Part shown: positions 17,624-45,831 of the stretch, piece by piece
How the letters are laid out: the number at the start of each line of letters is the position of its first letter
Position numbering within the stretch: position 1 is the first letter of the stretch
NCBI GenBank assembly: GCA_963675245.1
Contig: OY775910.1
Span: forward strand, 1,376,001-1,440,000
From: Acholeplasmataceae bacterium
GTDB lineage: Bacteria > Bacillota_I > Bacilli_A > Acholeplasmatales > Acholeplasmataceae
Length of the DNA stretch: 64,000 nucleotides
Direction of reading: 5' to 3'
Position numbers and translations under genes: made by a program
The notes under the pieces: model-generated
The model's input: the letters and a program-made list of their open reading frames with translations, nothing else
What the model was told of the DNA's origin: nothing
The model's database searches: none

Positions 17624-20203
17624 ATGAAGAAGTTCACTTGGAAACTCGCTATCACGGTCGTTGTTGCGTACTTGTTATTGACATCCGTTGTCTTATTGTC
17701 CTATACATTCATTTCGAATGGCTTTATTATGGGACAAGCAGAACAAGAACTCTCAACGATAGGAGAAGAAATTGCAAATTCCTTTTCGCTCCAAGTCACC
17801 TATGACTACAATCGCTTTGTCGATGAAATTGAGTCATTAGATGACCCACTAAATGAGTTTGTTCCTGCAAGCTTTTCTTTACTTAGTCAGAACATGCTTG
17901 GTTTTGGGCAAATCGTGGATCGTGAAGCAACTATTGGCGAAGATGTTTATACATACGATGCCAGTTTTTATAATTTAGATTTCCAACAAAACGTCGCCAT
18001 CTATAGATTTAGTGACGCTTTTTCAATGTGGACTGATGATACGAACCTCATGGTATTCAATTACAATAACTATATTGGCTATTTTGAGGCATCCAGTTAT
18101 CTACAAACATTTTTCTCAGGCAATAATATTGTATATGACTTCTATGTGATCGGGGCAGATTCCAGATTATACTATGATCATGTAAATACAACATATGAAC
18201 GATTTACAACGATTTTTAGAAATGAAGGTTATTCTGAGGCTTATCTAGCTGAAATGACAGGTATTCTTTCAAATGGTGAATCAGGTGTAATGCAATCTGA
18301 ATTATATGATTCAGCACAGCTTATATCATTTACACCCATTTCAATTTCGCTTAGTCAGATGACAAAACCACTTTATTTTGCAATCATGTATGAACGAACT
18401 GATGTGATTGCAACTGTCTCAACATTGAGTAATTTATTATGGGCAGTATTTGCAGTTATATTTGTTATTTTCTCTGTAACGATTGTAGTGATTTACCGTG
18501 TTCTTGCATCACGTATTGAAGATATTGATAATGCGAGACTCGCGTTATATTATGCAAAACCTTATATCATTAAAATTAGTAAAAAGGGTAAAATTAAGGG
18601 CTATAACAGAACATTTAGAAATTTTTTAGGTGATTTTGATATTTATGATGATGTAAGAGATTTTAAAGTCAAGAATGTCATTAACAAGGAAAGTATCTTA
18701 GAAATGGCAAGACGTCAACAATCCATGACGTTCTTATTTGAAATTGATAATGACGAAAAATATATCCTTTTTATTCCGACACGTACAACAGGTGGCATTC
18801 TTTTAATTGGTAGTGACACAACACATATTGAAGGACGTTTTGATCAATATCGTAGACTAGCATTAATGAATAGTGTTACAAATCTTCCCAATCAAAATCA
18901 ATTGATGCAAGACTTAGATGACATGTTAGATGATCCTGAAAGAGCACATCTAAACAATTCACTTATCACCTTTGATATCGTTAACTTCTCAAAAATTAAG
19001 CTTATTTTAGGACAACGCTCATCTGATCGTTTCCTTTCACTTGTTTCGGAAATGATTAATTCATCACTAGATGGTTATCCATCAACCTTATATAATATTG
19101 AAGCAGATCACTTTGTCGTCTTACTTCAAAATATTGAAACATATAAATGGACGGATCGTTGGATCGATAAAGTCATGCAAGTCTTTGATAAACCAGTAAC
19201 GATTGAGCGTAACTTCTTAAACGTTGAATTCAATTTTGGTATTTTTAATATTGAATATGATCGTTATGAGATTTTAAATAATTATGTATGTTATGAAAAT
19301 ATAATGCTTGCACATAAACATAGTAAGGATTCTACAAGATATAATAAATTCACATACGATGTATCACTATCCATCATCGCATCAAGAGAACACAAGATGG
19401 AACTTGATCTTGCTAATGCGATTAAGAAAAATGAATTTAAAATGGTATTACAAGCGCAACTTAACAATCAGACAAATAAGATTGTTGGTTTTGAAGCATT
19501 GATTAGATGGACAAATCCATCTTATGGTAATGAATCACCACTAAAATTTATTAAAATGGCAGAACAAAACGGTATGATTATCGATATCGGTCGCATTGCC
19601 CTTCATGAAACATTTACAATTGCTAAAGAAATGGAACCATATAATATCACAATTTCACTTAATATATCACCAGTTCAAATGCTTCAGGCAGGATTTGTTA
19701 ATGATTTAATCACAATCTTTGAACAATACGATTTAAAGAAAGGGTCAATTGCATTAGAAATTACCGAAACATTCTTAATTGATTCATTTGAACTTGTCAT
19801 TAACAAATTAAATCTATTAAAAAGACATGGTTTCCATATTCATTTAGATGATTTTGGAACAGGGTATTCATCACTTCAATACTTAAGAGATTTACCAATC
19901 AATGCACTCAAAATTGACAAGACGTTCGTCGACGAAGTAGAAACAGATGCCCATGCAAGAGCCATTGTAAGCATGATGTCTGACCTCGCTAAAAATATTG
20001 AACTTGACGTTATCGCAGAAGGTGTTGAAACAGCGAGGCAGAACTTTATTATCAAAAAAGCAAACTGTCATATCATTCAAGGATATCTAGTTTCAAAACC
20101 AGTTGATAAACAAGTTGCAATCGAACTCCTCAAGGCTTATAATATAGACCATACAGCAGATGTAAGTGCACTTTTACCTAAGGCAAAGGAGGGAAGAAAA
20201 TGA
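17624..20203 (+). CDS. membrane sensor with degenerate GGDEF and intact EAL domain (probable c-di-GMP phosphodiesterase)
   Basis: Two TMs flanking an extracellular region; GGDEF site reads EADHF; EAL motifs FEALIRW, EITE, DDFGTGYSS, KIDK, AEGVET, QGY. Confidence 0.88.
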   Translation: MKKFTWKLAITVVVAYLLLTSVVLLSYTFISNGFIMGQAEQELSTIGEEIANSFSLQVTYDYNRFVDEIESLDDPLNEFVPASFSLLSQNMLGFGQIVDREATIGEDVYTYDASFYNLDFQQNVAIYRFSDAFSMWTDDTNLMVFNYNNYIGYFEASSYLQTFFSGNNIVYDFYVIGADSRLYYDHVNTTYERFTTIFRNEGYSEAYLAEMTGILSNGESGVMQSELYDSAQLISFTPISISLSQMTKPLYFAIMYERTDVIATVSTLSNLLWAVFAVIFVIFSVTIVVIYRVLASRIEDIDNARLALYYAKPYIIKISKKGKIKGYNRTFRNFLGDFDIYDDVRDFKVKNVINKESILEMARRQQSMTFLFEIDNDEKYILFIPTRTTGGILLIGSDTTHIEGRFDQYRRLALMNSVTNLPNQNQLMQDLDDMLDDPERAHLNNSLITFDIVNFSKIKLILGQRSSDRFLSLVSEMINSSLDGYPSTLYNIEADHFVVLLQNIETYKWTDRWIDKVMQVFDKPVTIERNFLNVEFNFGIFNIEYDRYEILNNYVCYENIMLAHKHSKDSTRYNKFTYDVSLSIIASREHKMELDLANAIKKNEFKMVLQAQLNNQTNKIVGFEALIRWTNPSYGNESPLKFIKMAEQNGMIIDIGRIALHETFTIAKEMEPYNITISLNISPVQMLQAGFVNDLITIFEQYDLKKGSIALEITETFLIDSFELVINKLNLLKRHGFHIHLDDFGTGYSSLQYLRDLPINALKIDKTFVDEVETDAHARAIVSMMSDLAKNIELDVIAEGVETARQNFIIKKANCHIIQGYLVSKPVDKQVAIELLKAYNIDHTADVSALLPKAKEGRK

Positions 20204-21777: not shown

Positions 21778-21806
21778 TTGACAATTTGTGAAAACGGTAT
21801 TAAAAT
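21778..21806 (+). promoter_or_regulatory. sigma70/sigA promoter of the SipW-type operon
   Basis: TTGACA (21778-21783), 17-nt spacer, TAAAAT (21801-21806), directly upstream of riboswitch 1. Confidence 0.85.
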
Positions 21807-21814
21807 CATGTTAC

Positions 21815-21924
21815 AAGTTGAAAAAGGCAAAGCTGAAGGAATTCAGTGACGCAAAGCTAAAGGGCCTAGATCAGGTAGCCAGTTACCATTTGTTAAGACA
21901 AAGTGGTGCTGGTATTTTTATTTT
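21815..21924 (+). ncRNA. c-di-GMP-I (GEMM) riboswitch 1 with terminator, G20 type
   Basis: GGCAAAGCTGAA-GGAA-TTCAGTGACGCAAAGCTAAAGGGCCTAGATCAGGTAGCCAGTTACC; 3' part forms a terminator with TGGTGCTGG + T-tract. Confidence 0.92.
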
Positions 21925-21932
21925 CCAGAATC

Positions 21933-22033
21933 TGATATGTTAAAAGCAAAGCTGAAGGAACTCAGTGACGCAAAGCTAAAGGGCCTAGAACAGGTAGCCA
22001 GTTGCCATCAAGATTGATGACTGCTGGCTTTTT
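21933..22033 (+). ncRNA. c-di-GMP-I (GEMM) riboswitch 2 with terminator, A20 type
   Basis: AGCAAAGCTGAAGGAACTCAGTGACGCAAAGCTAAAGGGCCTAGAACAGGTAGCCAGTTGCC; terminator AGCCAGTTGCCATCA / TGATGACTGCTGGCT + TTTT. Confidence 0.92.
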
Positions 22034-22068
22034 CTGTAAAATAAAAAAATATAATTTATAGATTTTTA

Positions 22069-22170
22069 AAATGTAAAAAGCAAAGCTGTGGGGAACCCAG
22101 TGACGCAAAGCTATAGGGCCTAGTAAGGTAGCCAGTTGCCATCGACTATTTGATGACGGCTGGCTTTGTT
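22069..22170 (+). ncRNA. c-di-GMP-I (GEMM) riboswitch 3 with terminator, A20 type
   Basis: AGCAAAGCTGTGGGGAACCCAGTGACGCAAAGCTATAGGGCCTAGTAAGGTAGCCAGTTGCC; stem with TGATGACGGCTGGCT + TTGTT. Confidence 0.9.
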
Positions 22171-22188
22171 GTCGTAAGGAGTGATCCG

Positions 22189-22911
22189 ATGCATAGACTT
22201 TCAACCGTTACAGCGGCGAAAAAGATAAAAACTAGAAATCGCATATTTTCAATCGGTATCATTGTTAGTGGTATTTTATCAATCGTTCTAGGTGTTGTTA
22301 CATTCTATGGTCAACAAACAGGGAATTTCGTGATGAATGTCGATTATGATGCCTTCAATAGAGGAATAGTCATTGCTGATAATAGAACAATGGAAGACGC
22401 TGGGCCACAATTAATTAGTGAATCTATCACAGATGCAAAAGATGTGACGTATAGATGGTTAGATATTTCAAGTGCAAGTGAAACTGATGGTAATTTCTTT
22501 GATCCAGACCTTACATATATGGCGTATACATTCTATTTACAAAATGTGGGGTCAGAAGTTGTTGACATCACATATTCTATGAGAATTACTGATGTTTATA
22601 AAGGTTTAGATGAAGCAGTCAGAATTTTAATTATAGACGACGGCGTAGAAACACTTTATCAAAAAAGAGATGAAGCAGATGAATTTGGTGAACTTCCGAC
22701 TTATCCATTATCGATGCCTCCTGCATTAATGTTCCTAGATGATGATACAGTTGTCAGGAGGACAATATTAGGATTTGTACCAAATGAAATAAGAAAATTC
22801 ACAATAATGGTTTGGTTAGAAGGCGAAGATCCTGATACAAACGACGAAGTCTTAGGTGGACTCATTAAATTCAGATTGACATTCTCCATTGAGGAGGACG
22901 TAATCGCATGA
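22189..22911 (+). CDS. membrane-anchored extracellular protein related to the downstream SipW-cognate proteins
   Basis: Start moved to ATG 22189 (AAGGAG RBS; the longer ORF overlaps the terminator); one N-terminal TM; C-terminal VWLEGEDPD motif shared with neighbours. Confidence 0.75.
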   Translation: MHRLSTVTAAKKIKTRNRIFSIGIIVSGILSIVLGVVTFYGQQTGNFVMNVDYDAFNRGIVIADNRTMEDAGPQLISESITDAKDVTYRWLDISSASETDGNFFDPDLTYMAYTFYLQNVGSEVVDITYSMRITDVYKGLDEAVRILIIDDGVETLYQKRDEADEFGELPTYPLSMPPALMFLDDDTVVRRTILGFVPNEIRKFTIMVWLEGEDPDTNDEVLGGLIKFRLTFSIEEDVIA

Positions 22912-23885
22912 GACCAATTAACAGATTAAGATACTCCATATTACTTATGATTATCATGCTAATGGCACTAGGAACAGTGACATATGCATGGATAAGCTTA
23001 TCAACAATCAATAATATTGAAGGATTATCACTTAGTGCTACCTCTGGAGAAGAATTAGAAATTTCAATTGACGGTATTAATTATTACAACAATCTTAATA
23101 CTGATGAATTGTTGGATTTATTTGAAAATATTGTATTGACAGATGTCACAAGCAGAGATGGTATTAATTTTCAATCAGGTGGATTGAGAACTGGTCAAAA
23201 CATATATGCAAACGAAGATTATTTATCATTTGATTTGTACTTCAGAACAGTTTATGATGAACATCATGTCTATTTAATTAACAATGTAAGTGAACAAGTG
23301 AGTTATGATGTTTCAGCAAGAGGAACCTATGTAGTTTCAAATGGTATGGATTGGGTTAATCGTGTAGGATTCTTAAATGGTCCTGATCCAACAGATTATA
23401 TTGAGTCTGGTACACAAGCAAGATATTATGCAAGTGATACCATCAGAATGAGTTTCATTGAGCAACATGATGAAACGAATCCACTAGATACAAGAGATGT
23501 AAGTGAGTTAAGTCGTTGGATATTTGATCCATCGGGTGATGAAATGAGGGGTTATGGCAAGAGTTATGGTGCATATAGTTATTACATTCAAGTAACAAAT
23601 AACTATATCACTATTCCAAATGTCATACCAGAAGTAATATATGATTTAACAGAAACAGATCCAGAAAACCCATATATTACACATGATACTAATTCCTTAG
23701 TAACTATACTTCAAGCGTCAAATGAAACGAACGAAGAAGGTGAAGTTTACTACAAAGGTAAAATCACAGTTAACATTTGGGTTGAAGGATGGGATGCAGA
23801 CGCGTTCGATGCTGTAGATAAAGATCGTGTAAAAATCCAATTGCAATTCAAATCAACAAGATATATTCCAGATGATCAATCTTAA
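22908..23885 (+). CDS. SipW-cognate signal peptide protein (TasA/CalY-like candidate filament subunit)
   Basis: Signal peptide ending GTVTYA^WI; C-terminal IWVEGWD. Confidence 0.72.
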   Translation: MRPINRLRYSILLMIIMLMALGTVTYAWISLSTINNIEGLSLSATSGEELEISIDGINYYNNLNTDELLDLFENIVLTDVTSRDGINFQSGGLRTGQNIYANEDYLSFDLYFRTVYDEHHVYLINNVSEQVSYDVSARGTYVVSNGMDWVNRVGFLNGPDPTDYIESGTQARYYASDTIRMSFIEQHDETNPLDTRDVSELSRWIFDPSGDEMRGYGKSYGAYSYYIQVTNNYITIPNVIPEVIYDLTETDPENPYITHDTNSLVTILQASNETNEEGEVYYKGKITVNIWVEGWDADAFDAVDKDRVKIQLQFKSTRYIPDDQS

Positions 23886-23947: not shown

Positions 23948-24916
23948 ATGAGTAAAATTACAAGAAAGCTCGTATTATCACTTTTAACGGTTGTGTTAAC
24001 AGTCGTCGCACTGGGAACATCAACATTTGCGTGGTTCACAGTTACAAACCAAGCGTCAGTTCAAGAATTCCAAGCGAATATCGCTGCTGATTCTGGGATT
24101 GAAATTGCATTACCACAATTTGGAGAAGCAGATCCTCTTAATTGGGGATGGAAATCGTATCTTGATGCAACAGATATCGCAACATATATTTCAGATTACA
24201 TCAATTCAAGTTTCACATTTGATCATTTGTCATCAGAAAATGGTGTTGCCTTTACAAACATCGATGGTAATAGTACAACAACTGGTTTTTTAAATATTCC
24301 TGTATACTTCAGATCAGACAATATTTCAGCTATCAATTTAAATGCATTAACTTTACGTGCAGATGATGTACCAGCTTGGCGTACAACAGTTGGATTTACG
24401 AATGAACATGGTACTGCTATATCAGCAAATGGCACATTTGCAGTCAATGCTGCAGATGCATTTAGAATTTCACTTACTGATGTTACTGGTTCGAATGGTA
24501 CTTCAATCTTTGAATTAGAAGGTACTGCTACTAATGTCGTATTAGGAGAAATTGCAGGATTAGACATTCTTGATGTAGCTAACACAAATCCAACAACATC
24601 AGAACCATATACTTATGGTGCGATTGAATATTACTATGCTGCAAATAGCGCATATCCATCTGATGGTGATGGCGATGGCAGTGTTTTGGTTAATATTCCA
24701 GATACAACATTAATTCCTGAATATGCATCACCAGCTACACCGCTTGTATCACCAATGACAGTGCTTGGTTTAATTGCAGATGCTGGTTCAGTTTATGGTA
24801 AAGCTAATTACGGTCTATTAAGAATTCGTGTTTGGTTTGAAGGTTGGGACCAAAATGCATACAATTCATTATTAGGTGAAACAATTTTCACATCATTCAG
24901 TTTTGAAGCTGCTTAA
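23948..24916 (+). CDS. SipW-cognate signal peptide protein, candidate major subunit
   Basis: GTSTFA^WFT; C-terminal VWFEGWD; AAGGAG RBS with A-rich leader; followed by a strong hairpin. Confidence 0.75.
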   Translation: MSKITRKLVLSLLTVVLTVVALGTSTFAWFTVTNQASVQEFQANIAADSGIEIALPQFGEADPLNWGWKSYLDATDIATYISDYINSSFTFDHLSSENGVAFTNIDGNSTTTGFLNIPVYFRSDNISAINLNALTLRADDVPAWRTTVGFTNEHGTAISANGTFAVNAADAFRISLTDVTGSNGTSIFELEGTATNVVLGEIAGLDILDVANTNPTTSEPYTYGAIEYYYAANSAYPSDGDGDGSVLVNIPDTTLIPEYASPATPLVSPMTVLGLIADAGSVYGKANYGLLRIRVWFEGWDQNAYNSLLGETIFTSFSFEAA

Positions 24917-25047: not shown

Positions 25048-25746
25048 ATGAAACAAACAAAATGGAATGTTAAGCGAATTGTTAAAATTGGCTTAAATAC
25101 CATATTCTATGGTGTAATTGTATTTTTGATGTTGTTCTCAGTTGCTAATATGAGACTTAGAAGTGAAAACAATATCGCAAATATATTTGGTGTTGGCTTA
25201 CTATCTGTACAAACAGATTCCATGACAGGAACATTTGATCCTGGTGACATGCTATTTGTAAGTATGCTTGATGAATCAGACTTTGAAGATCTTGAAGTTG
25301 GGGATATAGTAACCTATTTTGATGTTCAATTAGGTGCTTTTAACACACACAGAATTGTTGAAATTAATCTTGATGAACAATTTTTAACAACAAAAGCTGA
25401 TTATGCAGGTGGAAATGGTTCCGTAGCTGTACCGGATCAACCAGTTGCCTTTGATCGTGTTATTGCAAGATATGATGGTCAAATGATTGCAGGATTGGGA
25501 TCAGGACTTGATTATATGCAAACATCAGTTGGATTCGCCTTATTTGTTATTCTTCCTGTATTGATCGTGTTGATCATCGAGGGTGTTATTTTAGCAAGAC
25601 ATATCATGGCTATGAACCGTGAAAAGTTGGAGCAAAAATATGCGGAAGAACGTTTACAGGTTGCGCAAAGTTTAGAATCAGAACGTGAAAAACTTCGTGC
25701 TGAAATATTGGCTGAAATGACGAGAGAAAAGGCATTACACGCATAA
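25048..25746 (+). CDS. sipW: signal peptidase I, SipW/S26B type
   Basis: VQTDSM (Ser), PGD, GDIVTY, THRIV (His), TKAD; N- and C-terminal TMs plus charged tail. Confidence 0.85.
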   Translation: MKQTKWNVKRIVKIGLNTIFYGVIVFLMLFSVANMRLRSENNIANIFGVGLLSVQTDSMTGTFDPGDMLFVSMLDESDFEDLEVGDIVTYFDVQLGAFNTHRIVEINLDEQFLTTKADYAGGNGSVAVPDQPVAFDRVIARYDGQMIAGLGSGLDYMQTSVGFALFVILPVLIVLIIEGVILARHIMAMNREKLEQKYAEERLQVAQSLESEREKLRAEILAEMTREKALHA

Positions 25747-25782: not shown

Positions 25783-27321
25783 ATGGTAGAGTTCGCTCGT
25801 TACTATATTGACCTGTTACGAAACTTTTTCATTAATGTCGGTGAATTTTTTGGAGCTATATTTCAAGCATTTGCCGATTTCTTTGTTCGTAGTGTAGGTG
25901 AATATTTTAATAGTTTTGTTATAGCAACAGCTCAATTTGGACTACTTGACTGGGTAATGGCATTTGTCGTTATTGTGATCAATTTAGTCTTTTTGGTGTT
26001 CTTGGTTTTAAAACTCTATCAGTGGCTTTCTAAATACGCGCGCTTCGTCGGGCGCGAGATTGAAAAAGACGAACTACTTGAAGAAATTGCGTTCTTAAAC
26101 CAAAAGACAGTTGAACTAGTTGATGAACGTAATAAAATCTTAGCACTTAAGGTTTCAAACTTGGGGTTAAGTCCTGAAGAAGAAATCAAAGCAGAAGAAA
26201 AAATCTTGGAAGAAGAAATTAAAGATCAAGGTCCTTCTCGATTTGTTAAACTCATTGCAGTTGACAAAGAATACGAAAATCGCGTGACACAAATTCACAT
26301 GCGAGAAGAAGACATGTTGAATTTGAACGAAATCGTGACAAGATTCATTAACTTTTCAGCAAATAAGCTTGGTTTATTCTACAATAGAAAAATAATTTCT
26401 GCATTCTTTGCTGGTATGGCATCTTCTAAAACAATGATTTTAGAAGGGATATCGGGTACTGGTAAAACATCACTACCATATGCCATGGGTAAATTTTTTA
26501 ATAACGATGCACATATCATTGCCGTTCAACCTTCTTGGAGAGATAGAGCTGAAATGATGGGTTATCTAAATGAGTTTACGAAGCGATTCAATGAAACAGA
26601 ATTCTTAGAAGCGATATATGAAACGACTTATCACAACGATATCAACATCATCGTTCTAGATGAAATGAACTTAGCACGTGTTGAATATTATTTTGCAGAA
26701 TTCTTATCACTACTTGAAATGCCAGATGTCGATAAATGGCTTGTTGATATTGTTCCTGATGAGCAACCTTCAGATCCTGTACATTTACATCGAGGCAAAA
26801 TGCTACTTCCACAAAATGTGTGGTTTATTGGTACAGCCAATAAAGATGATTCAACATTTACAATTACGGATAAAGTATATGACCGTGCCACATCTATTGT
26901 TATCAACACAAAAGCAGATTTCATTGATGCACCTGAAACAGATAGTATCACACTAAGTCATGACTATTTACAAGAGTTATTTAGATCCGCAATGGATGAA
27001 CATCAACTTACCTTAAAGGCATTAAAAAATCTTGAAAAACTTGATAGCTATGTTACAGTAAATTTTAAAGTCACATTCGGTAATCGTATCATGAAACAAA
27101 TCAGAGCATTCGTTCCTGTATTTGTTGCATGTGGTGGCTCTGAAAATGATGCATTAGATTACATGGTTGCAAACAAAATATTTAGAAAATTTGAAGGATT
27201 AAATTTACCGTTCTTGCAAAAAGAAATCACTGAATTATCAACATTGCTTGATCGCTTATTTGGTAAAAACTCTTTCCCAGAGTGTCAAGCATATCTTGAT
27301 TCGATAAAGAAAACATTCTAA
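25783..27321 (+). CDS. membrane-anchored McrB-family AAA+ NTPase
   Basis: N-terminal hydrophobic helices, coiled coil, Walker A GISGTGKT, VQPSW, Walker B IIVLDEMNLARVEYYF, GTANKDD (NxxD), KVYDRA, FGNR. Confidence 0.85.
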   Translation: MVEFARYYIDLLRNFFINVGEFFGAIFQAFADFFVRSVGEYFNSFVIATAQFGLLDWVMAFVVIVINLVFLVFLVLKLYQWLSKYARFVGREIEKDELLEEIAFLNQKTVELVDERNKILALKVSNLGLSPEEEIKAEEKILEEEIKDQGPSRFVKLIAVDKEYENRVTQIHMREEDMLNLNEIVTRFINFSANKLGLFYNRKIISAFFAGMASSKTMILEGISGTGKTSLPYAMGKFFNNDAHIIAVQPSWRDRAEMMGYLNEFTKRFNETEFLEAIYETTYHNDINIIVLDEMNLARVEYYFAEFLSLLEMPDVDKWLVDIVPDEQPSDPVHLHRGKMLLPQNVWFIGTANKDDSTFTITDKVYDRATSIVINTKADFIDAPETDSITLSHDYLQELFRSAMDEHQLTLKALKNLEKLDSYVTVNFKVTFGNRIMKQIRAFVPVFVACGGSENDALDYMVANKIFRKFEGLNLPFLQKEITELSTLLDRLFGKNSFPECQAYLDSIKKTF

Positions 27322-27338
27322 ATGACTAGGAGTAAGCA

Positions 27339-29192
27339 ATGAAACATCAACAAGAACTAAAAGAATTTCATCAAGCAATCACCGATGCTTACTATCAAAT
27401 CGAAATGGAACAGGTTTTTCCAAATCGTTTCTATGATGCATTTCTTGCTGGTGAGAATGAAATGTATCAAAAATCCATTACTGAGTTGAAGGCATTCCAT
27501 GTAGATTGGATACCTACGCTTGAGTCATATTTACCATCTTTGAATAAGATTATTATGAATCCTAAATCAGGATTAAGATATGAACAACCAGTTGTCGCAA
27601 TTGAAAAAGCAAAAAAAGTTAATGCGCAGTCAATCAGGCACTTATCCATGCATTCTCATCTTGTTAAGGAAGTTAGAGAAGACATGGTTATTCCTAAAAA
27701 AATTATGACGACTCAAGCTGAAATTGACTATGCCATTTATGAAAATCGTTTTATTAAAACATTGGTTGAACGCTTATTTGATTTTGTGTTTAGAAGATAC
27801 AATATTATTAAGGCGAATATTGATTCTTTCAATAAGAGACACTTTGATTTAAAAAGCAAATTTGATATGCAAGATACAGATATTGATTTGGATATTCATG
27901 TAACATTTACTGAACGAGCAGATGATGAAAATGCGATTGAAAAAAACAATGAAATGCTTAAACGTATCGAAGCTTTAATGAAACAAATCAATGGGTTTAT
28001 GTCTACAGCATTTTGGGCTGAAGTTAAAAATGCTAAAAATGTAACACCACCGATTATGCAAACATCTATTCTTTTAAAGAATATTGACTATAAAAATTGT
28101 TATACACTGTGGCTTTTTCTAGACCGATTTAGCAATCTTGATTTTGATAATGATGTTAAAGAAAAGAATCTAACATTTGATAATTACTATACAAAAAATG
28201 TATATCAAATTGCCTTACAAACTGTAGCGATGATATACGGTAATCAGTTAGCACTAGATGAACATTATCAGTATCTGAATGAAAAAGAGTACAAAAGAAG
28301 AAGTCCAAAAATTATCAATAAACGACTTGATGAATTACTGACACATGATCAAGTAATAGAAATGGAAGATTTTTCATTAAACGAGTATTTCTTAGAGCAA
28401 AGTAAAAAGCAATTTACTAAATTACTTGAAGAAAAACAAGAAGAATCATCTAATTATGATGTCGCCTTACGTCGAGCATTACGTGATACAATTCAAATTA
28501 CCAATTCATTATTTGAATCCTATTTTAATTTGAATGATCAACCCGAAGGCGAAGATTTCATGTTTAGGTCACTCGTCAAAGAGTCTACATACGATCAACT
28601 ACAAACCGCAAGACAGCGAACAAGAATCATGAAGATTATAAGAGAAACAAAAGAAGTAGACTATAACAATATGATGAGACTAGAAAAGCGATTATTAAAA
28701 GAAGTAGAGTATCTTAATAAACAGTATCTTGATGAAGAAAAATCAAATATTAAGATAGTCGCAAAACGAAAAGGTTTAGAAGAAAAATTAAAGATTGAAA
28801 GACGTAATGCAGCGAAAGATCAAGCAAGAGTAACTAGATATTTGAAATACGTTTCTGATCAACATAAAAAACTTGAAGAAAATCACAGAAAGACGACTGA
28901 AAAAATCAGAAAGACAAGAGAAAAGGTTAAACTTACAGAAAAACAAGTTATTGCAGCTGAAAAGAGAAAAGCAAAAGCGGCATATCAAGCAGAACTTAAG
29001 CGCATTAAGGAACAACATAAAGCTGATAAGAAGAGATTAGAGACTCAATTAGCAAAGCAGACACAAAGTGATAAAACAAGATTAGAACAACAATTGTCAA
29101 ATATCGAAAAGGCATCTAAAAAACGGATTGATAAAGAAATGAAAACAATTGAAAAACGATATCAAAAGAAATTAAATAAAGTCAAAACTTAG
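27339..29192 (+). CDS. DUF2357/McrC-N-like protein with long C-terminal coiled coil
   Basis: DYAIYENRFIKTL and NIDYKNCYTLW motifs, directly after the McrB-like gene; last ~200 aa are K/E/R/Q-rich helix; no clear PD-(D/E)xK seen. Confidence 0.65.
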   Translation: MKHQQELKEFHQAITDAYYQIEMEQVFPNRFYDAFLAGENEMYQKSITELKAFHVDWIPTLESYLPSLNKIIMNPKSGLRYEQPVVAIEKAKKVNAQSIRHLSMHSHLVKEVREDMVIPKKIMTTQAEIDYAIYENRFIKTLVERLFDFVFRRYNIIKANIDSFNKRHFDLKSKFDMQDTDIDLDIHVTFTERADDENAIEKNNEMLKRIEALMKQINGFMSTAFWAEVKNAKNVTPPIMQTSILLKNIDYKNCYTLWLFLDRFSNLDFDNDVKEKNLTFDNYYTKNVYQIALQTVAMIYGNQLALDEHYQYLNEKEYKRRSPKIINKRLDELLTHDQVIEMEDFSLNEYFLEQSKKQFTKLLEEKQEESSNYDVALRRALRDTIQITNSLFESYFNLNDQPEGEDFMFRSLVKESTYDQLQTARQRTRIMKIIRETKEVDYNNMMRLEKRLLKEVEYLNKQYLDEEKSNIKIVAKRKGLEEKLKIERRNAAKDQARVTRYLKYVSDQHKKLEENHRKTTEKIRKTREKVKLTEKQVIAAEKRKAKAAYQAELKRIKEQHKADKKRLETQLAKQTQSDKTRLEQQLSNIEKASKKRIDKEMKTIEKRYQKKLNKVKT

Positions 29193-29215: not shown

Positions 29216-29980
29216 ATGAATAAGTTAAAAATTAAAGATCATAGAAAACTGACAATCGTTTCATTACTATATGTATTATTTGCCTTCTTTATGTTAGTGG
29301 TTGTGACATATGCTTGGTTTGCAAATACAAATCATAATAATGCTAGTCTAATTCAAAATGTTGCAGCAGTTGAAGCAGAATATCAATATTTTGTTTATAA
29401 TGATACATCTCATACTGGTTCACAAGAATTAACATTAATAAATAATACTACGACAACAGGGGAAGACTTAGCTTATGAATTTGTACCAAATCCCACAGTC
29501 GCTAGCTTTATTGATGGTTATATCGCACCAGGCGAAAGATTTTCATTTGCGATTAAAATTACAAATGTTGGATCGGGAACTGGCTATTTAGAAATACAAT
29601 TTGGAAATGTCACATCAATCAATTATGATTTAGAGATTAATCGTATTCAAAATGCAATTTACTTTGAAGTTACTAAAATTGTAAGTTCAGATGGTGTCAC
29701 GGAAAGTGATGATATCAAGGACATTAGTCCTGCACAACATTTTAGTTCATATTTTAACGGTGATATATTTCAACGATATCAAATGTTGAGAAATATTCCA
29801 TTGGGTTATACATCCTCAGATGAAGTCACAATTATATTCTTTGATATTGTATTTGATCCAACGATTTATGGCGAAGATGAATTTGGTATACCTTATACCA
29901 ACTCAAATATTTTCATGGGTCAAACAATTACGGTAAATAATATATATATGTATATTACTTCCAACGAGGTGACACCATGA
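29216..29980 (+). CDS. SipW-cognate signal peptide protein
   Basis: VVTYA^WF; IAPGE...ITNVGS segment resembling the TasA/CalY PG...NxGS pattern. Confidence 0.75.
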   Translation: MNKLKIKDHRKLTIVSLLYVLFAFFMLVVVTYAWFANTNHNNASLIQNVAAVEAEYQYFVYNDTSHTGSQELTLINNTTTTGEDLAYEFVPNPTVASFIDGYIAPGERFSFAIKITNVGSGTGYLEIQFGNVTSINYDLEINRIQNAIYFEVTKIVSSDGVTESDDIKDISPAQHFSSYFNGDIFQRYQMLRNIPLGYTSSDEVTIIFFDIVFDPTIYGEDEFGIPYTNSNIFMGQTITVNNIYMYITSNEVTP

Positions 29981-30684
29981 GAAATATAGCACCTAAATTG
30001 TTTACTTCTTTAGCCATTATCATTTTCATTTTTGCGATTGTTATTATGATTTCTGGCACTTATGCGATTAGAAGGAATGAACCAGTTTATATCTTTGGAT
30101 ATGCACTTGCTGTTGTTCCTACTGAATCAATGGTTGGTGAACATGAAGATTCACTTGATATGAATGATCTCGTTATTATTAGAAAAATTGATATTAGTGA
30201 CATCCATGTTGAAGAACATCCAGTGATTGTCTATCAAGGTACAGGAAATAATAATGCTGATATTCTCATTATTCACAGAGTGATTGGCGAATCAAATGAA
30301 GGTTTAATCACTAAAGGTGATAATGAAGATACGAACGATGTCGCTGATCAATTATTAGTTAATGGTGCTCAAGCATATATTACAGATGATAATATTCAAG
30401 GTATATATGTCGCGAAAATCACTTTTTTAAAACCAATAGCAAATATTATGACGAATTCAAGATCAATGATATTTGCAATAATTGCAGTTATTTTATCGGT
30501 CATTCTCATTTCTGAGTTAATTCATTTTGTTAAAACGCTAGAGGATAAGAAAAAAGAAGATATGGCAAAGCAACACGCATCTTATTTAGCTATAATGAAT
30601 GACGTCACAAGGAAGTCAATCAAAGAGGAAATTAAAAAAGAGTATTTGGCAAACCTAGAGCAATCTAGGGACGCAAAGCTATAG
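29977..30684 (+). CDS. sipW: second signal peptidase I, SipW/S26B type
   Basis: VPTESM (Ser), IIHRVI (His), ITKGDN; flanking TMs. Confidence 0.85.
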   Translation: MRNIAPKLFTSLAIIIFIFAIVIMISGTYAIRRNEPVYIFGYALAVVPTESMVGEHEDSLDMNDLVIIRKIDISDIHVEEHPVIVYQGTGNNNADILIIHRVIGESNEGLITKGDNEDTNDVADQLLVNGAQAYITDDNIQGIYVAKITFLKPIANIMTNSRSMIFAIIAVILSVILISELIHFVKTLEDKKKEDMAKQHASYLAIMNDVTRKSIKEEIKKEYLANLEQSRDAKL

Positions 30685-30734
30685 GGCCTTTCTAAGGTAG
30701 CCAGTTGCACCATTATCGTTGGTAGCTGGCTTTT
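30640..30734 (+). ncRNA. c-di-GMP-I (GEMM) riboswitch 4 with terminator, G20 type, overlapping the 3' end of the second sipW
   Basis: GGCAAACCTAGA-GCAA-TCTAGGGACGCAAAGCTATAGGGCCTTTCTAAGGTAGCCAGTTGC; terminator with TGGTAGCTGGC + TTTT. Confidence 0.9.
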
Positions 30735-30759
30735 ATGCTTTTATAAGAAGAGGAATAAC

Positions 30760-31416
30760 ATGAGAAAATCAAGTCTAATTATCATGTTAATAGTAGCAAC
30801 TTTCACACTTATTGGTAGTGTGTCTTATGCTTGGTTCACGTACGTTGAGAAGAAAAGCTTAGCGACTTTTGAAGCAGGCGTTTTGGCTATTCAAACAAAG
30901 ATAAATGATGATGTTTTCTCAGTCACATATGAAATTTCCGATATTGCTTATATAGATTTTGATAAGGATGTCGTTAATGATAGTTCTAACACGTTTGATT
31001 ATATGGCATCGTCAAACGTTCTCGAAATTGCGCTTGACCCTCAATCACCACTTGCTGTTCACACAGTTACAATTAATGAACCTATTGGACAAGAAGGTTT
31101 GCTATTGTTATTAATTAATGAAGGACTAAATCTAGAATCTGGAGCTCAAATCACGTCTAATTACCACGATCTGATTGAGACGATTACAACCGGTTCTAGC
31201 ACACCAGAAGAAATGAGACTAGCAATCGATTTGTACAATCAAAGTGTTTTAGATGATGTTTATGAGACGATTATGACAGCTTCTGATACACTTTATTTGC
31301 AAGTGGTGGTATGGGGTGATTATGATGAATTATCTGATCAATCAAATTATTTAGATTTGACATTTTCACTAACTGTAACCATTGAGACAATTAATGCAAG
31401 AGGTGCAACACCATGA
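30760..31416 (+). CDS. SipW-cognate signal peptide protein
   Basis: GSVSYA^WFT; FEAGVL; C-terminal VVWGDYD. Confidence 0.72.
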   Translation: MRKSSLIIMLIVATFTLIGSVSYAWFTYVEKKSLATFEAGVLAIQTKINDDVFSVTYEISDIAYIDFDKDVVNDSSNTFDYMASSNVLEIALDPQSPLAVHTVTINEPIGQEGLLLLLINEGLNLESGAQITSNYHDLIETITTGSSTPEEMRLAIDLYNQSVLDDVYETIMTASDTLYLQVVVWGDYDELSDQSNYLDLTFSLTVTIETINARGATP

Positions 31417-32090
31417 GAATAATAGATCGAATACTTCTCATTGCGATGACATTTATGCTGGGTTTGATGGTTGCAGTTATATCAACATATGCATATTTTC
31501 AAATAGCGGAAATACATGGCATCACGCTTTCAGCAGGTGAGTTTGATGTAGAATTACTTGTTAAATTTGATGGTGTGGTTGTTACATATGATAGTCCATT
31601 TTATGATATCGATCGAGGAAAAATTATTGCTAATGCATTTGACAATGCATCAAGCAATTATATCGGAAACATGACAATTGACTTATTAATAACACCTGAG
31701 GTTGCTGCAAGAATGAGATTTAAAATTCAACAGGAATGGATTCTTCAAAGATATTATTTAGATCAAGATCCAGAACATCCAATTGATCCAGTATTTGAGT
31801 CTATCTATCATTCTCAAAAAGCGAGTACATATTACCCATATTCATTGATGTTATGGGCGAATGGTATGACGACCATCTATGAACAAAATGGTATGAACTA
31901 TTATACAAATATTATCCCTAGTAGCACAGAAACGATAATACCAATTATAAATGGTGGAGATTCTTATACCGTGAGAACAAATAGTGTTCTATACGAGGAA
32001 TGTTATGTCTATTTTGATGTATATATTGATTTAGTTCAAGCCAATAGATTCTCTGAAGTATGGGGAATTGATCCAACATATTTCAACTAG
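31413..32090 (+). CDS. SipW-cognate signal peptide protein
   Basis: ISTYA^YFQ; LSAGEFDV; C-terminal VQAN...WG. Confidence 0.72.
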   Translation: MRIIDRILLIAMTFMLGLMVAVISTYAYFQIAEIHGITLSAGEFDVELLVKFDGVVVTYDSPFYDIDRGKIIANAFDNASSNYIGNMTIDLLITPEVAARMRFKIQQEWILQRYYLDQDPEHPIDPVFESIYHSQKASTYYPYSLMLWANGMTTIYEQNGMNYYTNIIPSSTETIIPIINGGDSYTVRTNSVLYEECYVYFDVYIDLVQANRFSEVWGIDPTYFN

Positions 32091-32109: not shown

Positions 32110-35100
32110 ATGAAACGTGTTATAAAGCGAGTTGCAAGTGTCATTTTAATCATATTAATTGCACTGTTTGCCAGTTCGTTTTTAGGACGCGATTTAATCT
32201 ATGCTGATGGTTATCAAACATCATCAGCTTGGATGGGAGAAGATGTTGGTGTTGCTCCACTATCAGACATATCATTCGATAGTGAATATCGTCCTTTTTC
32301 ATCTGTTATTGATAATTATTTACTAGTTGATACGAATAAGAAGTATGTGATAGAAACAGCGAAAGATCTCTATATGTTTTCAGAACTTTCGAGAGGTGAT
32401 CATTCTGCTCTTTATTTAAGTCTGGATTATGTTTTAGGAAAAGATATTGACTATTTTGCTGCTTTACAAGAAAATATTACCTATTTGTTTACACCTATAG
32501 GTTTTAATACACCATTCACTGGCACATTTGATGGACAAGGTTATGAAATAACAAATTTGATCTTCAGATCAGTAAATTCTACTGAAGATTATGATACATA
32601 TATGCCAGGTTTAGTATTTTATTCTATGTTTTCAAAAACGTCTTCAACAGCTGTCATTGAAAATTTAGGTTTAATCAATCCTTTAATAGTACAAGCAATT
32701 GAAGAAGGTGCTATGACACATGTCTCAGTTTTAGTCGGAGAAAATAGAGGATTAGTTAAAAATGTTTACTACTTAGATAATCGTGGTGACTCATCAGGAA
32801 TCAATGCAGAAGGTAATTTCTTTATATCTGGGTTGGTTTCTAGAAATCTCGGTACAGTGACTAACGCATTTGTTTCATCACCACATATTCGAAGTCTCGC
32901 TATTATCAACAATTTAGCAACATCGGTATTAATTTATTCAAACTCTGGCACCATTGAAAATCTTTATTATGATAGTGATGTATATGAAGATGAAGCAACA
33001 ACATCAGTCACAAATGGTACTGGATTAAGTACATTGGACTTTCAAAATCCAAACAATTTTAATAGTGATTGGTATTTCAGTGATTCATATACAGGATTAA
33101 CAACTGATCCTAATCTTATTAGTCAAACCATCATTGATGCTACATATCCAACGCTTCAAGGTATTGAAGTTGAAAATGGCACTATTCTAATAAATGATGC
33201 TGTTGATTTTGTTTACATGAATGAATTACTTCAAGTGTCTGGTTTATTTAGATCGTCTGATTATATTGTGACACATGATATTGATATGAACCAAGTCTCA
33301 CGTAAAGCTTATCAAGCAGCAAGTGTGGGTTTTTCTGGTTCATTATCAAGTCGATTGGCAGCACCTGAAACAACGCTTTATACGCATCAATCTACACAAG
33401 GTGGATCTTATTTATATCATACGATTATTGGTTTAAAAATCAGTGAAGCGACATTAATTGGTAATTATGCTAGTTATGCATTATTTAGTTCATTATTTGG
33501 TCAAATAAGTCATTTGAACTTATGGGACTTAACAATTATTCCAGAAAATATAATTGAAACAGTGAATCGCGATAAAATTTTAATTGGTGGATTAGCTGCG
33601 AAAGCAACGACAGCGACGATTAATGATGTACATCTTCAAATAACGATTGATATACCAAATGAAATGACGGCACTAGGACAATTGTTAATCGGTGGTATGA
33701 TTGCTGAAGGCTCAGCAACAATTGATTATGTATCAACAACGGGTACTATTGATGAAATGAATTTGACATATAGTTCAAGAGCTAATTATTCTGCTATTGC
33801 TGGTTTAATCGCACATCCAACAAATGCAAGCGCTACACACGCATTAAATCATATAGACATACTTGGACTAAGCTATATAAATACAACAACAGGTACGACT
33901 TATTATGGTGGATTGTTCGGTTTTGGTTCTGTGAACACCTTAGAACGTGTTGTTAATCACGGTGATATCACAACCCAATCTTCCGGATATGTTTATGAGA
34001 CATATGTGGGCGGTATTATTGGTTATCAAGAAGATCTACTTGAAGATATTCAATACGCATATAATAGTGGTAACTTATTACAACACATCAATCAAGAACA
34101 ACATTATCACTTAGCCGGATTTGGTACCGTTGAAGATCTTGAAGATGATTTGGATATTGTTTCAATAACGAATAGTGGATTAATTCAAGTCGATATGATT
34201 ACGGAAATGTCTGAAGCAAATTTACTTGCTATTGATGGTTATGTTTCAGGTGTTCTAATTAGTTATGCTGATGGTGAGATTACAGGTTTATTTCAAACAA
34301 GAAATCAAGATATTGATATTTCAGCCATTTCTTATTTTGCTGGGACACTTTTAGCACTAGATCAAACTGATTTAGTCATGAAACAATCTTATCAAACAGG
34401 TAACCTTGATTTTTATAGTTCGAATATATTGACTCATGATGAATTACATATATCATTGAATGTTTTTGGCACAAATTTGACACAGGAACATTTACGACAA
34501 GAAGGAGATGCAAGTATCTATCTAACAGAAGACTCTTCATCATCTTTAGTCAATGCTAAATTCTTTATTTATGGTGTCATACAAGAAGTTAGTCAAAATT
34601 ATTACGCGAAAGATCTATTTAATGGTGGTAATATCACGTTAGATAAAGATAGTGGTGCTGATATTGTATATGACATCTATATAGGGGGAATTGCTTTTCA
34701 AAATAGAAATACTAATTTTTACTCAGAACATAATATAGATCATGCATCCATCGATATTGAGACCATTGATGGACCTATAAATACAGTTTTAAATAGTGGA
34801 AATATCACGGTTCGCGGTGACTTTGATGGACATGTAAAAGTAGCTGGTATTTTAGTCATGAATGAATCTTTGTTAACTAATGCCATTAATTTAGGAGACA
34901 TTGATATTAGAAATGATGCACAAAGCGCAAATGACCAAATTGAAGCAGCTGGTATTGTATATTTAATGACAAGTGAGTATTCTCAAGTAAGAGATACTGC
35001 AAACAATGGCGATATCGTTGTTGTATCTACATCAAGTGTCGGCTATACACATGCTGCTGGTATTGTCCTAAGGAATGATTTAAATGAGGATTTATCGGTG

Positions 35101-44733: not shown

Positions 44734-45831
44734 TTACTCATAAACTGTTTTATTACGACCACTTGCTTTTGCTTTATACAAGTTCGTATCAGCTCGAAAG
44801 ATAATATCTTTAACATCATCATTAGGTGAAATGTTGGTCACACCAATACTAATTGTAGCAACATGCTTTTCTTTAGCGGTTATTTCTGAAACTCTTTTTC
44901 TTAATCTTTCAGCAAGATCAAATGTTGATTTTTCACTAAAAAACTTAGTTAAAACAATGAATTCTTCACCACCATACCTACCAATTACATCATTATTAGG
45001 TAATGAATTTTTAATAGTATCAGCGATTTTCTTTAAAATATCGTCACCATATTGATGTCCCCAGGTATCATTAATTGTTTTAAAGTGATCAACATCAATC
45101 ATCATTAAAGAGATTTTTTCATCGGTCTTTTTAATTAAATTTAGTTTGTCTTCCAAAACACCAAAAAAAGTTTGACGTTGATAAACACCAGTTAAATGAT
45201 CTATAGATGATAATTCTTCCAATAACGTATTCTTGACTTCTAAACTCTTAACTAAATTAATATTTTGATCTCTCTCATATATATAACGATTAAGAGTAAG
45301 ATGACTTACGATGACAAGACTGATACCAGCTGCCAATACACCGAAAATATTATCAATCAAGACTGAGCTTTCATCTGTATAAGTAATAACCAAATTAGGA
45401 TAATGAAAAGAAAGAATCATGATAGAAGTATAAATAGTAGATAGTAAGATGGTTGTAAATATAGTACTTTTCATTGATTCAGTATATAAGGCAAAATAAG
45501 CAATAATCATTACGAAATATAGAGGAGAAGCACCGTTATAACCACCGTTAATAAAATAATTGAAGGGTATATATAACAAAGCAAATAAATAAATAATAAC
45601 TAACGCAAACTTTTCAATTTTTTCAGGTAATAGTGATATGAAAATTATACACATTAGCATGATAACGAGATTTGGTATATTCATCCAAAAAGGAATGTCA
45701 AAGAAAAAATTCATGACAAATGCTAACGAAGACATCAGAAGTCCAGTCAGAATATAAATAACCGCCAGTTTTTGTCGGTAACTTAACTCGCGATAATTAA
45801 ATATTGGTAATGATTTTAATGATTTCATCAA
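44734..45831 (-). CDS. membrane-bound diguanylate cyclase (intact GGEEF)
   Basis: About 6 TMs; DHLTG, DVDHFKTINDTWGHQYGD, RYGGEEF, TISIG, AKASGRN. Confidence 0.9.
   Translation of the reverse strand: MMKSLKSLPIFNYRELSYRQKLAVIYILTGLLMSSLAFVMNFFFDIPFWMNIPNLVIMLMCIIFISLLPEKIEKFALVIIYLFALLYIPFNYFINGGYNGASPLYFVMIIAYFALYTESMKSTIFTTILLSTIYTSIMILSFHYPNLVITYTDESSVLIDNIFGVLAAGISLVIVSHLTLNRYIYERDQNINLVKSLEVKNTLLEELSSIDHLTGVYQRQTFFGVLEDKLNLIKKTDEKISLMMIDVDHFKTINDTWGHQYGDDILKKIADTIKNSLPNNDVIGRYGGEEFIVLTKFFSEKSTFDLAERLRKRVSEITAKEKHVATISIGVTNISPNDDVKDIIFRADTNLYKAKASGRNKTVYE

Follow-up and report, generated by a model that had tools for sequence, protein, structure and literature searches.

What is a relative of a restriction motor doing between two genes for signal peptidases? 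McrBC is the textbook GTP-driven restriction motor, and the locus described here encodes a derivative of it that is fixed in a surface-structure operon, from Acholeplasma to gut Clostridia. The locus lies in a stretch of 64,000 nucleotides from an Acholeplasmataceae bacterium (assembly GCA_963675245.1, contig OY775910.1, positions 1,376,001–1,440,000), and by ‘the window’ we mean this whole stretch. The genome is a single contig of 1.63 Mb, the GC content of the window is ~33%, and the host is a wall-less Mollicute, judging by close homologs of its proteins, which carry the labels Acholeplasma or Acholeplasmataceae. Two adjacent genes are at issue, both present as open reading frames (ORFs) on the + strand: one for ‘McrBm’ (P0001), a McrB-like protein, and one for ‘DUF2357cc’ (P0002), its McrC-like partner. 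An original prediction, made from the letters of the sequence, offered two explanations of this pair. The first was a restriction motor repurposed for filament assembly or secretion; the second was a membrane-sensing defense module co-induced with the biofilm state.

We find that the pair most likely represents the McrB-like and McrC-like components of a ‘CoCoPALM’-type system (a clade of CoCoNuT-like systems, discussed later), rather than a restriction enzyme. The first explanation is favored by the fixed position of the pair, flanked by SipW-type signal peptidase genes (30 of 34 related loci), by its co-occurrence with genes for putative secreted subunits in a survey of 81 genomes, by its conservation, by riboswitches and by flanks that are not those of a defense island. 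The part played in assembly or secretion is our own interpretation of this evidence, and the idea as such is not new, for the passages of Bell et al. on CoCoPALM link it to pilus assembly (PMC11090510). The second explanation is disfavored by the genomic evidence, as we describe below.

The McrB-like protein and its partner

McrBm can be divided into four parts: an aromatic-rich N-terminus of 43 residues; a hydrophobic stretch, residues 44–83, which is the only one found in a Kyte–Doolittle scan; a charged, acidic linker, residues 84–150, with a net charge of −7; and an AAA+ core. An N-terminal hydrophobic 19-mer occurs in all 77 full-length relatives. No Pfam domain was found N-terminal of the core, and hence no DNA-binding domain of the McrB type. 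The expectation that a hydrophobic segment takes the place of the DNA-reading domain of McrB is thus borne out. The coiled coil that was thought to accompany it was not recovered: heptad periodicity in the linker did not exceed that of shuffled sequences (z = −0.6, by a crude script).

The core carries a Walker A motif (GISGTGKTS), a Walker B motif (LDEMN) and the string GTANKDDS. Of 120 close homologs, 119–120 have each of the motifs Walker A, Walker B and N-x-D-D, the last of which occurs in all 120; GTAN-x-D-D, sought as a regular expression, was found in 72 of 80 loci. The Walker motifs are intact, as had been stated. The third motif had been read as NxxD, and this is a literal fit to N353-K-D-D356, although the variant ‘NxD then D/E’ fits equally well. 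An HMMER alignment to Escherichia coli McrB places the motif as NxxD; a McrBm paralog in the same genome reads NRDE, which favors the NxD assignment. Searches with McrBm against the E. coli McrB structures gave E = 0.011 with the single sequence and E = 2.7e-4 with a profile of 18 sequences (A1), and the Pfam AAA_5 match (E = 6e-4) falls below the gathering score. NCBIfam gave no match for P0001, P0002 or any of the neighboring T proteins introduced below. By its motifs and hydrophobicity, McrBm is a complete McrB-type nucleoside triphosphatase (NTPase) core with a predicted N-terminal membrane anchor. We call it a GTPase for its likeness to McrB, and its preference for GTP over ATP is putative.

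DUF2357cc matches the Pfam family DUF2357—the N-terminal domain of McrC—over residues 4–151 (E = 4.9e-12), as do 29 of 48 aligned orthologs. In McrBC, this domain enters the hexamer formed by McrB and promotes the hydrolysis of GTP, according to the part of Bell et al. that deals with it (PMC11090510). Conservation across 84 orthologs is limited to a core of residues ~26–275, and includes G38, W57, E62, E89, H101, P119, Y134-E-N-R137, R153, F225, P238, T242, N248 and W258. Beyond residue 258 not one position is conserved, and the lengths of the orthologs range from 451 to 998 amino acids. The tail of the window’s protein, residues 421–617 (197 amino acids), has a net charge of +31 and a pI of 10.2, is 46% charged, and contains no proline and a single glycine; tails with a net positive charge are found in 62 of the 84 orthologs. 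The nearest Atlas cluster to residues 150–420 is again DUF2357, which is a lead only. Compared with PDB sequences, a P0002 profile (A2) matched nothing except low-complexity helical noise (best E 0.048).

Neither P0002 nor any of the 48 aligned orthologs matches a nuclease family in Pfam, and the claim that the partner lacks a PD-(D/E)xK nuclease therefore holds at this level. The description of it as DUF2357-like, with a basic tail of some 200 amino acids, is likewise accurate. On this evidence P0002 retains the predicted hexamer-plugging N-domain of McrC, with no detectable nuclease.

Conserved surroundings of the pair

The pair lies in an operon on the + strand, in the part of the window between 17.6 and 39.6 kb (Table 1). 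The order is: two genes for GGDEF-EAL proteins, which turn over cyclic di-GMP (c-di-GMP), upstream of the operon; a leader of 520 bp; T253, T325, T322, SipWa, McrBm, DUF2357cc, T254, SipWb, T218 and T225; and finally, a gene for a protein of 2499 amino acids. SipWa and SipWb, both SipW-type signal peptidases, flank the pair, with SipWa directly upstream of McrBm and SipWb two genes downstream of the pair. The context that had been suggested, a surface-structure operon, was found in the form of these two peptidases, T proteins with predicted TasA-class signal peptides and an adhesin-like protein. The remaining genes of the window are housekeeping genes: fab, trk, MATE, FtsZ, SepF, IleRS and tmRNA.

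SipWa scores just above the cut-off of TIGR02228, the model for archaeal-type signal peptidase I (52.4 versus 51.85 bits). The model for SipW also matches SipWa, at 8.1e-18, below its own cut-off, and neither peptidase reaches the equivalog cut-off for Bacillus SipW (64.7 versus 190 bits). Among 87 SipWa-like proteins, S58 and H101 are present in 86 and D118 in 81; among 55 SipWb-like proteins, S51 and H100 are present in all and D121 in 54. Because the catalytic residues are kept, SipWa and SipWb probably act as genuine peptidases and not as chaperones of the SipA kind. Both kinds end in a C-terminal transmembrane (TM) helix followed by a tail of ~35–45 residues, about half of them charged (86/87 SipWa-like, 55/55 SipWb-like). 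A sortase-type pilus with a SipA-like chaperone was considered and rejected: the peptidase catalytic residues are kept, and Pfam found no sortase in the ORFs of the window or in the distant flanks that were scanned.

Six proteins encoded around the pair, the ‘T proteins’, have N-terminal hydrophobic segments. In T325, T322, T254, T218 and T225 the hydrophobic helix ends in (G)T-x-(T/S)-(Y/F)-A, followed by W/Y-(F/I), a combination of small residue and aromatic that we take to be similar to the signal-peptide class of TasA and camelysin. Five of the six, then, carry what appear to be TasA-class signal peptides; T253 has TFYGQ after its helix instead of the AW(F/I) motif. T253, T325 and T322 have a C-terminal W-x-EG-(W/E)-D motif in common. 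In an alignment of T322 (A3, 36 sequences), A28, W29, F30, G299 and D301 are invariant, and the profile made from it finds 6743 relatives at E ≤ 1e-3 in a representative library. The named Atlas cluster nearest to T325 is Peptidase_M73, at 0.86, a match so weak that it is a lead only.

A bona fide Peptidase_M73 protein—of the TasA/camelysin family—is encoded inside the orthologous operon of a relative (G031; L114:1165-1731, − strand). It has 189 amino acids, scores above the PF12389 cut-off, has the signal GGVLAWLTD and adjoins a third, short SipW gene.

Four c-di-GMP-I riboswitch aptamers occur in the operon (Rfam RF01051, 52.7–60.9 bits against a gathering score of 35): three in tandem in the leader, and a fourth inside the operon, before T218. 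The 3' end of each aptamer (AGCCAGUU...) doubles as the 5' half of a hairpin, which is followed by a U tract; the four hairpins have calculated stabilities of −15 to −20 kcal/mol. As the hairpins need the aptamers’ own 3' ends, the usual logic points to a terminator switch that is ON in the presence of ligand, and we infer that c-di-GMP switches the operon on through riboswitches of this type. Riboswitch 4 probably drives a sub-operon that includes the 2499-amino-acid protein, a probable adhesin by its features. Elsewhere, aptamers precede T253 in all eight Acholeplasmataceae fiber-operon loci tested, with one to four tandem copies in relatives, and are present in three of six distant loci. 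In six of 10 distant loci, the module has EAL, GGDEF or PilZ genes beside it. A further gene, for a GGDEF-only protein of 365 amino acids, lies 5 kb downstream of the operon (window 44734–45831, − strand), so that the region holds three genes for c-di-GMP enzymes.

The arrangement just described is conserved beyond the family. Sampled at one genome per species, McrBm relatives number 602, and the best 80 loci span Acholeplasmataceae, Anaeroplasma, Izemoplasmatales, Erysipelotrichaceae and several families of Clostridia. Neighbors were counted at the 34 related loci that extend for 4 kb or more in both directions, among them loci of Clostridia and Erysipelotrichaceae. Every one of the 34 has a SipW-like gene, DUF2357cc directly follows McrBm at 30, T253 lies upstream at 32, and T genes are found at 32; the four exceptions to the second count are second copies of the operon without a McrC-like gene. 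The order GGDEF-EAL (twice), T253, T325, T322, SipWa, McrBm, DUF2357cc, (T254), SipWb is kept in 11 of 20 loci examined. In distant loci, large proteins with LRR_5, CBM_2, Glug or Listeria–Bacteroides repeats follow the module, in the place of the 2499-amino-acid protein.

Within the family, 45 of the 81 genomes sampled carry a P0001-type gene, and these represent 13 of 20 genera; no such gene turned up in the sampled genomes of g2 (7/7), g12 (7/7) and g15 (6/6), each of ~0.6–1.0 Mb. Strong matches to McrBm and T322 occur together in 41 of the 81 genomes, McrBm alone in one, T322 alone in four and neither in 35. Two of the T322-only genomes have the gene at a contig end, and the other two are weak matches. 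This table was read by hand, and related genomes are not independent samples. No protein of the operon is better conserved than McrBm: it has 49–77% identity to its orthologs in the family compared with 23–57% for the T subunits, and its tree largely follows taxonomy (FastTree, 103 sequences). Acholeplasma laidlawii, A. hippikon and A. granularum, all culturable, carry the operon, and so the question of what the pair does is directly testable.

Several variants were seen alongside these. The host genome has a second membrane McrB-like/McrC-like pair outside the window (G000:C1:1617880-1622149, − strand; L111:7880-12149). Its B protein, of 903 amino acids, has a polytopic membrane domain of ~520 amino acids before the AAA core, and the motif GTANRDE; ORFs of 890–910 amino acids similar to it occur in six relatives. 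Its partner, of 521 amino acids, has an N-domain homologous to that of DUF2357cc (hhalign probability 98.5%) and weak zinc-ribbon matches. The genes are flanked by those for GNAT and ArgRS, with no SipW or T genes. McrB–McrC–McrB triplets with shorter B proteins occur in L025 and L026, with no T genes or riboswitches nearby. The module also occurs in records labeled Bacteroidales, Bacteroidaceae, Bacteroides uniformis or Treponema (L044, L050, L068, L082, L095 and L104), which group in the tree with Bacillota and Mollicutes; these are probably mis-binned contigs, rather than cases of gene transfer. Similarly, an 88%-identical homolog of P0007 that is filed under a eukaryote transcriptome, that of Anaeramoba ignava (EukProt), probably belongs to an Acholeplasma-like bacterium that was either associated with the eukaryote or a contaminant.

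Table 1. The McrBm operon and its control elements (positions are those of the window)
Feature	Position	Strand	Basis or remark
GGDEF-EAL protein, 859 aa, first of a pair for c-di-GMP turnover, ahead of the operon	17624..20203	+	Pfam EAL 3.7e-61, GGDEF 2.3e-14; orthologous pair upstream in related loci
GGDEF-EAL protein, 476 aa	20200..21630	+	Pfam EAL 1.4e-56, GGDEF 2.4e-16
Promoter-like site, TTGACA-17-TAAAAT, 11/12, directly before first aptamer	21778..21806	+	Consensus scan; consensus match only
c-di-GMP-I riboswitch 1 (aptamer 21816-21890), then hairpin and U tract	21816..21925	+	RF01051 60.9 bits; hairpin −15.8 kcal/mol, z −3.4
c-di-GMP-I riboswitch 2 (aptamer 21935-22009), then hairpin and U tract	21935..22036	+	RF01051 53.5 bits; hairpin −16.5 kcal/mol
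c-di-GMP-I riboswitch 3 (aptamer 22069-22143), then hairpin and U-rich tract	22069..22172	+	RF01051 52.7 bits; hairpin −19.8 kcal/mol, z −4.0
T253, first gene, conserved, TFYGQ after an N-terminal hydrophobic helix	22189..22911	+	Probable start ATG 22189, given AAGGAG at 22177 (ORF list: TTG 22150)
T325, secreted subunit-like, signal motif GTVTYA/WI, C-terminal WVEGWDAD motif	22908..23885	+	Sequence motifs
T322, secreted subunit-like, signal motif GTSTFA/WF, C-terminal VWFEGWD motif	23948..24916	+	Alignment A3
SipWa, archaeal/ER-type signal peptidase I, C-terminal TM helix and charged cytoplasmic tail	25048..25746	+	NCBIfam TIGR02228 52.4 bits
McrBm (P0001), 512 aa, putative membrane-anchored McrB-family AAA+ GTPase-like protein	25783..27321	+	
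DUF2357cc (P0002), 617 aa, McrC N-terminal-domain protein, basic helical tail, no recognizable nuclease	27339..29192	+	
T254, putative secreted protein, signal motif VVTYA/WF	29216..29980	+	
SipWb, second signal peptidase I, C-terminal TM helix and charged tail	29977..30684	+	TIGR02228 1.4e-10, below cut-off
c-di-GMP-I riboswitch 4 (aptamer 30638-30712, overlapping SipWb end), then hairpin and U tract	30638..30745	+	RF01051 57.6 bits; hairpin −15.1 kcal/mol, z −2.2
T218, putative secreted protein, signal motif GSVSYA/WF	30760..31416	+	
T225, putative secreted protein, signal motif ISTYA/YF	31413..32090	+	
Giant protein, 2499 aa, N-terminal hydrophobic segment, C-terminal aromatic repeats weakly CBM_5_12-like	32110..39609	+	CBM_5_12 E 0.0044, below cut-off

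A proposed role and its rivals

We propose that the pair belongs, as an integral component facing the cytoplasm, to machinery for making a fiber or adhesin on the cell surface. When c-di-GMP is high, the aptamers would be stabilized, the terminators could not form, and the operon would be on. The T subunits would leave by the Sec pathway, and their signal peptides would keep them in the membrane. A membrane-tethered hexamer of McrBm, activated by the DUF2357 domain in the way that McrC activates McrB, would hydrolyze GTP at the inner face of the membrane and, by way of its anchor and of the charged tails that both peptidases have in the cytoplasm, would time or position SipW cleavage. The subunits would then polymerize into a fiber that stays attached to the cell, a tether that would be of particular importance where there is no wall. 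Candidate contact surfaces are the charged tails of the peptidases, the acidic linker of McrBm and the basic tail of DUF2357cc.

These proposals are not equally secure. That McrBm and DUF2357cc work in the biogenesis or anchoring of a surface structure is, in our judgment, reasonably likely. We put forward more tentatively, as something that may well prove otherwise, the general proposal that CoCoPALM is an NTP-powered pathway for surface fibers in Bacillota, including the wall-less Mollicutes, in which a GTPase ring and a nuclease-less McrC would couple GTP hydrolysis to the ordered SipW cleavage and polymerization of a new family of subunits, under the direct control of c-di-GMP riboswitches. 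If correct, a new class would be added to the machines of pilus biogenesis, and the McrBC motor would for the first time have a job other than defense. The specific idea that McrBm gates the peptidases is possible but doubtful. Were McrBm found to power or time fiber assembly, a route of pilus biogenesis would have gone unrecognized, and a motor of defense would have been recruited for construction at the cell surface.

Several observations weigh against this proposal. Every step of the mechanism is drawn from sequence and genome context. The T proteins have no match in Pfam and no sequence homology to TasA that we could find; Peptidase_M73 (PF12389) was not found in the host genome at E ≤ 1; the T322 profile gave nothing meaningful among PDB sequences (best E 0.44); and hhalign aligned the Peptidase_M73 protein of the relative with that profile over the signal peptide only, with a probability of 7%. 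Since the T proteins lack sequence homology to TasA, the ‘fiber’ is itself an interpretation. To our knowledge, the Bacillus SipW/TasA system has no McrBC-like NTPase pair, and its fibers are not known to need an NTPase, so that the need for a motor is left unexplained. Coiled coils that might mediate the contacts are unconfirmed: heptad periodicity in the tail of DUF2357cc was no higher than in shuffled sequences (z = 1.5, crude test), and the coiled coil attributed to this tail has fared no better than that of the McrBm linker. The two segments may be charged single helices rather than coiled coils, and we do not count the failed test, from a crude script, as evidence against helices.

The distribution of the genes also holds points against the proposal. 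Tandem second copies of the operon retain McrBm and lack DUF2357cc and SipWb (L012, L013, L015, L035, L036, L038, L039 and L045); in L013, the second copy is directly upstream of a full operon with four tandem riboswitches. In the tree of 103 sequences, the eight second-copy McrBm proteins form one clade, sister to that of the window, which fits one duplication followed by loss. Stand-alone pairs of McrBm and DUF2357cc, with no T genes or riboswitches nearby, occur in L018, L022, L024 and L029. They form another clade, nested among the Acholeplasmataceae, and two of them are beside GGDEF/EAL-like genes. The pair can persist, then, outside the operon. Finally, the PADLOC candidate PDC-M26A matches the AAA core of McrBm at 2.7e-41. 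The match is confined to the core, its best stretch joining McrBm residues 154–314 to positions 272–432 of a profile of 724; no full-length match to component A was found, and no partner component of PDC-M26 among P0002 and the neighbors.

If the pair is not a motor, it could be a regulatory nucleotide switch. Together, the membrane GTPase and DUF2357cc would respond to GTP, c-di-GMP or the state of the envelope by toggling SipW activity or the output of the operon, performing no mechanical work on a fiber. The c-di-GMP genes, PilZ and riboswitches around the module suit this explanation; the charged cytoplasmic tails of both peptidases could receive the signal; and the second operon copy without McrC suggests that the module does not always require stimulated hydrolysis in cis. 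In neither McrBm nor DUF2357cc did Pfam find a known c-di-GMP-binding domain, however, and the strict conservation of the AAA+ catalytic motifs argues for real cycles of hydrolysis, although these are compatible with a switch, too. We regard this explanation as improbable.

A canonical restriction system is rejected, as there is no DNA reader, nuclease or methylase. What survives, as quite an improbable alternative, is a defense or surveillance module that rides in the fiber operon: a membrane-bound, CoCoNuT-like derivative of McrBC, located, say, at the foot of a fiber that serves as a phage receptor, which would sense nucleic acid by its basic tail, block infection and be co-induced with the biofilm state. 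Descent from McrBC is in its favor, and Bell et al., in the section concerned, place the class among the CoCoNuT-like systems (PMC11090510). So, too, are the PDC-M26A match to the AAA core, the basic tail (net +31), which could bind nucleic acid, the Rho_N domain that one P0002 ortholog carries, and the stand-alone pairs and B–C–B triplets elsewhere in relatives. Yet no nuclease or other effector was found in the pair or its neighbors, and PADLOC gave no match for P0002.

The genomic setting argues against defense as well. Pfam found no methylase, integrase or convincing defense gene in the window, as the original prediction had it, and PADLOC gave only cross-matches of generic domains. Neighborhood mapping, which had been proposed as a check, places the orthologs outside defense islands: the flanks consist of housekeeping genes in the window and in nine of 10 distant loci, the exception being L088, which has an endonuclease and a resolvase upstream. 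The position in the operon is fixed across classes of Bacillota. In contrast to typical defense genes, which are patchy and fast-evolving, McrBm is conserved above all other operon proteins and its tree largely follows taxonomy. A role in membrane remodeling or division, unrelated to the neighboring secreted proteins, is very improbable indeed: the FtsB-like HHpred match that Bell et al. report for the N-terminal region (PMC11090510, supplementary file 2), the wall-less host and the large polytopic membrane domain of the second paralog speak for it, but the FtsB similarity (E = 1.2 only) is not significant, a single span leading to a cytoplasmic NTPase would give a topology opposite to that of FtsB, the linkage to T and SipW genes is strict, and the McrBm gene was not found in 36 of the 81 family genomes, and so is not a core division gene.

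Comparison with known systems

A role in making or anchoring a surface structure can be set beside four known systems. McrBC of E. coli (6hz4, 6ut6 and 7vsr) is a type IV restriction enzyme. The AAA+ core, Walker A and B and the N-x-x-D position of McrBm align with it, and the partner carries the N-terminal DUF2357 domain of McrC. The window’s pair differs from McrBC in having a predicted membrane anchor instead of the DNA-binding N-terminal domain, no detectable PD-(D/E)xK nuclease and no defense-island context, and the sequence similarity is weak even with a profile.

The TapA-SipW-TasA system of Bacillus subtilis, and related SipW-dependent matrix proteins such as BsaA of Clostridium perfringens, likewise place an archaeal/ER-type signal peptidase beside several secreted proteins, at least in the parts of PMC11580942 that bear on the point. 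The operon described here resembles this system further in a Peptidase_M73 member in a relative’s orthologous operon and in signal peptides that end in a small residue and an aromatic, presumably as in TasA. It differs from it in having T proteins without detectable TasA homology, two peptidases, an embedded McrBC-like pair and a wall-less host.

Triple-tandem c-di-GMP-I riboswitches are uncommon, but they are known from Bacillus thuringiensis, in which Bc3-5 comprises three complete class I riboswitches in tandem in one 5' leader, as the relevant part of PMC4759541 describes. The two cases have this arrangement in common. The organism and the regulated genes differ, and the operon considered here adds a fourth riboswitch in its interior and a range of one to four tandem copies among relatives.

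The closest counterpart is CoCoPALM itself, a clade of CoCoNuT-like systems named in section 7 of Bell et al. (eLife 2024; PMC11090510). According to the passages on it there, CoCoPALM consists of a GTPase fused to an FtsB-like TM and coiled-coil domain; its McrB and McrC homologs both carry coiled coils; it is associated with signal-peptidase-family ‘pilus assembly’ genes; and the branch to which it belongs is defined by an NxD motif followed by D/E. The coverage we refer to amounts to one paragraph and two HHpred rows (FtsB, E 1.2; the SipA pilus chaperone 4N31, 8e-8), with analysis deferred to a later publication, and literature searches found no published study that characterizes CoCoPALM beyond this one.

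The locus of the window corresponds to these passages in several respects. It has a McrB-like GTPase with a predicted N-terminal TM and helical segment, a McrC homolog (DUF2357) with a long, charged helical extension, and signal-peptidase-family genes that are associated with it in 34/34 related loci; its N-K-D-D is compatible with the NxD branch, while also fitting NxxD. Beyond what those passages describe, the present system includes SipW-type peptidases with their catalytic residues, TasA-class signal peptides on the products of neighboring genes and tandem c-di-GMP-I riboswitches. The class, then, already had a name, although we found no published characterization of it, and the new details refine the class rather than found it. 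They are the apparently catalytic SipW-type peptidases; the TasA-class signals on a subunit family that is otherwise unassignable; conserved riboswitch control, including the triple tandem; duplicate operons that lack McrC; and a second, polytopic pair of paralogs.

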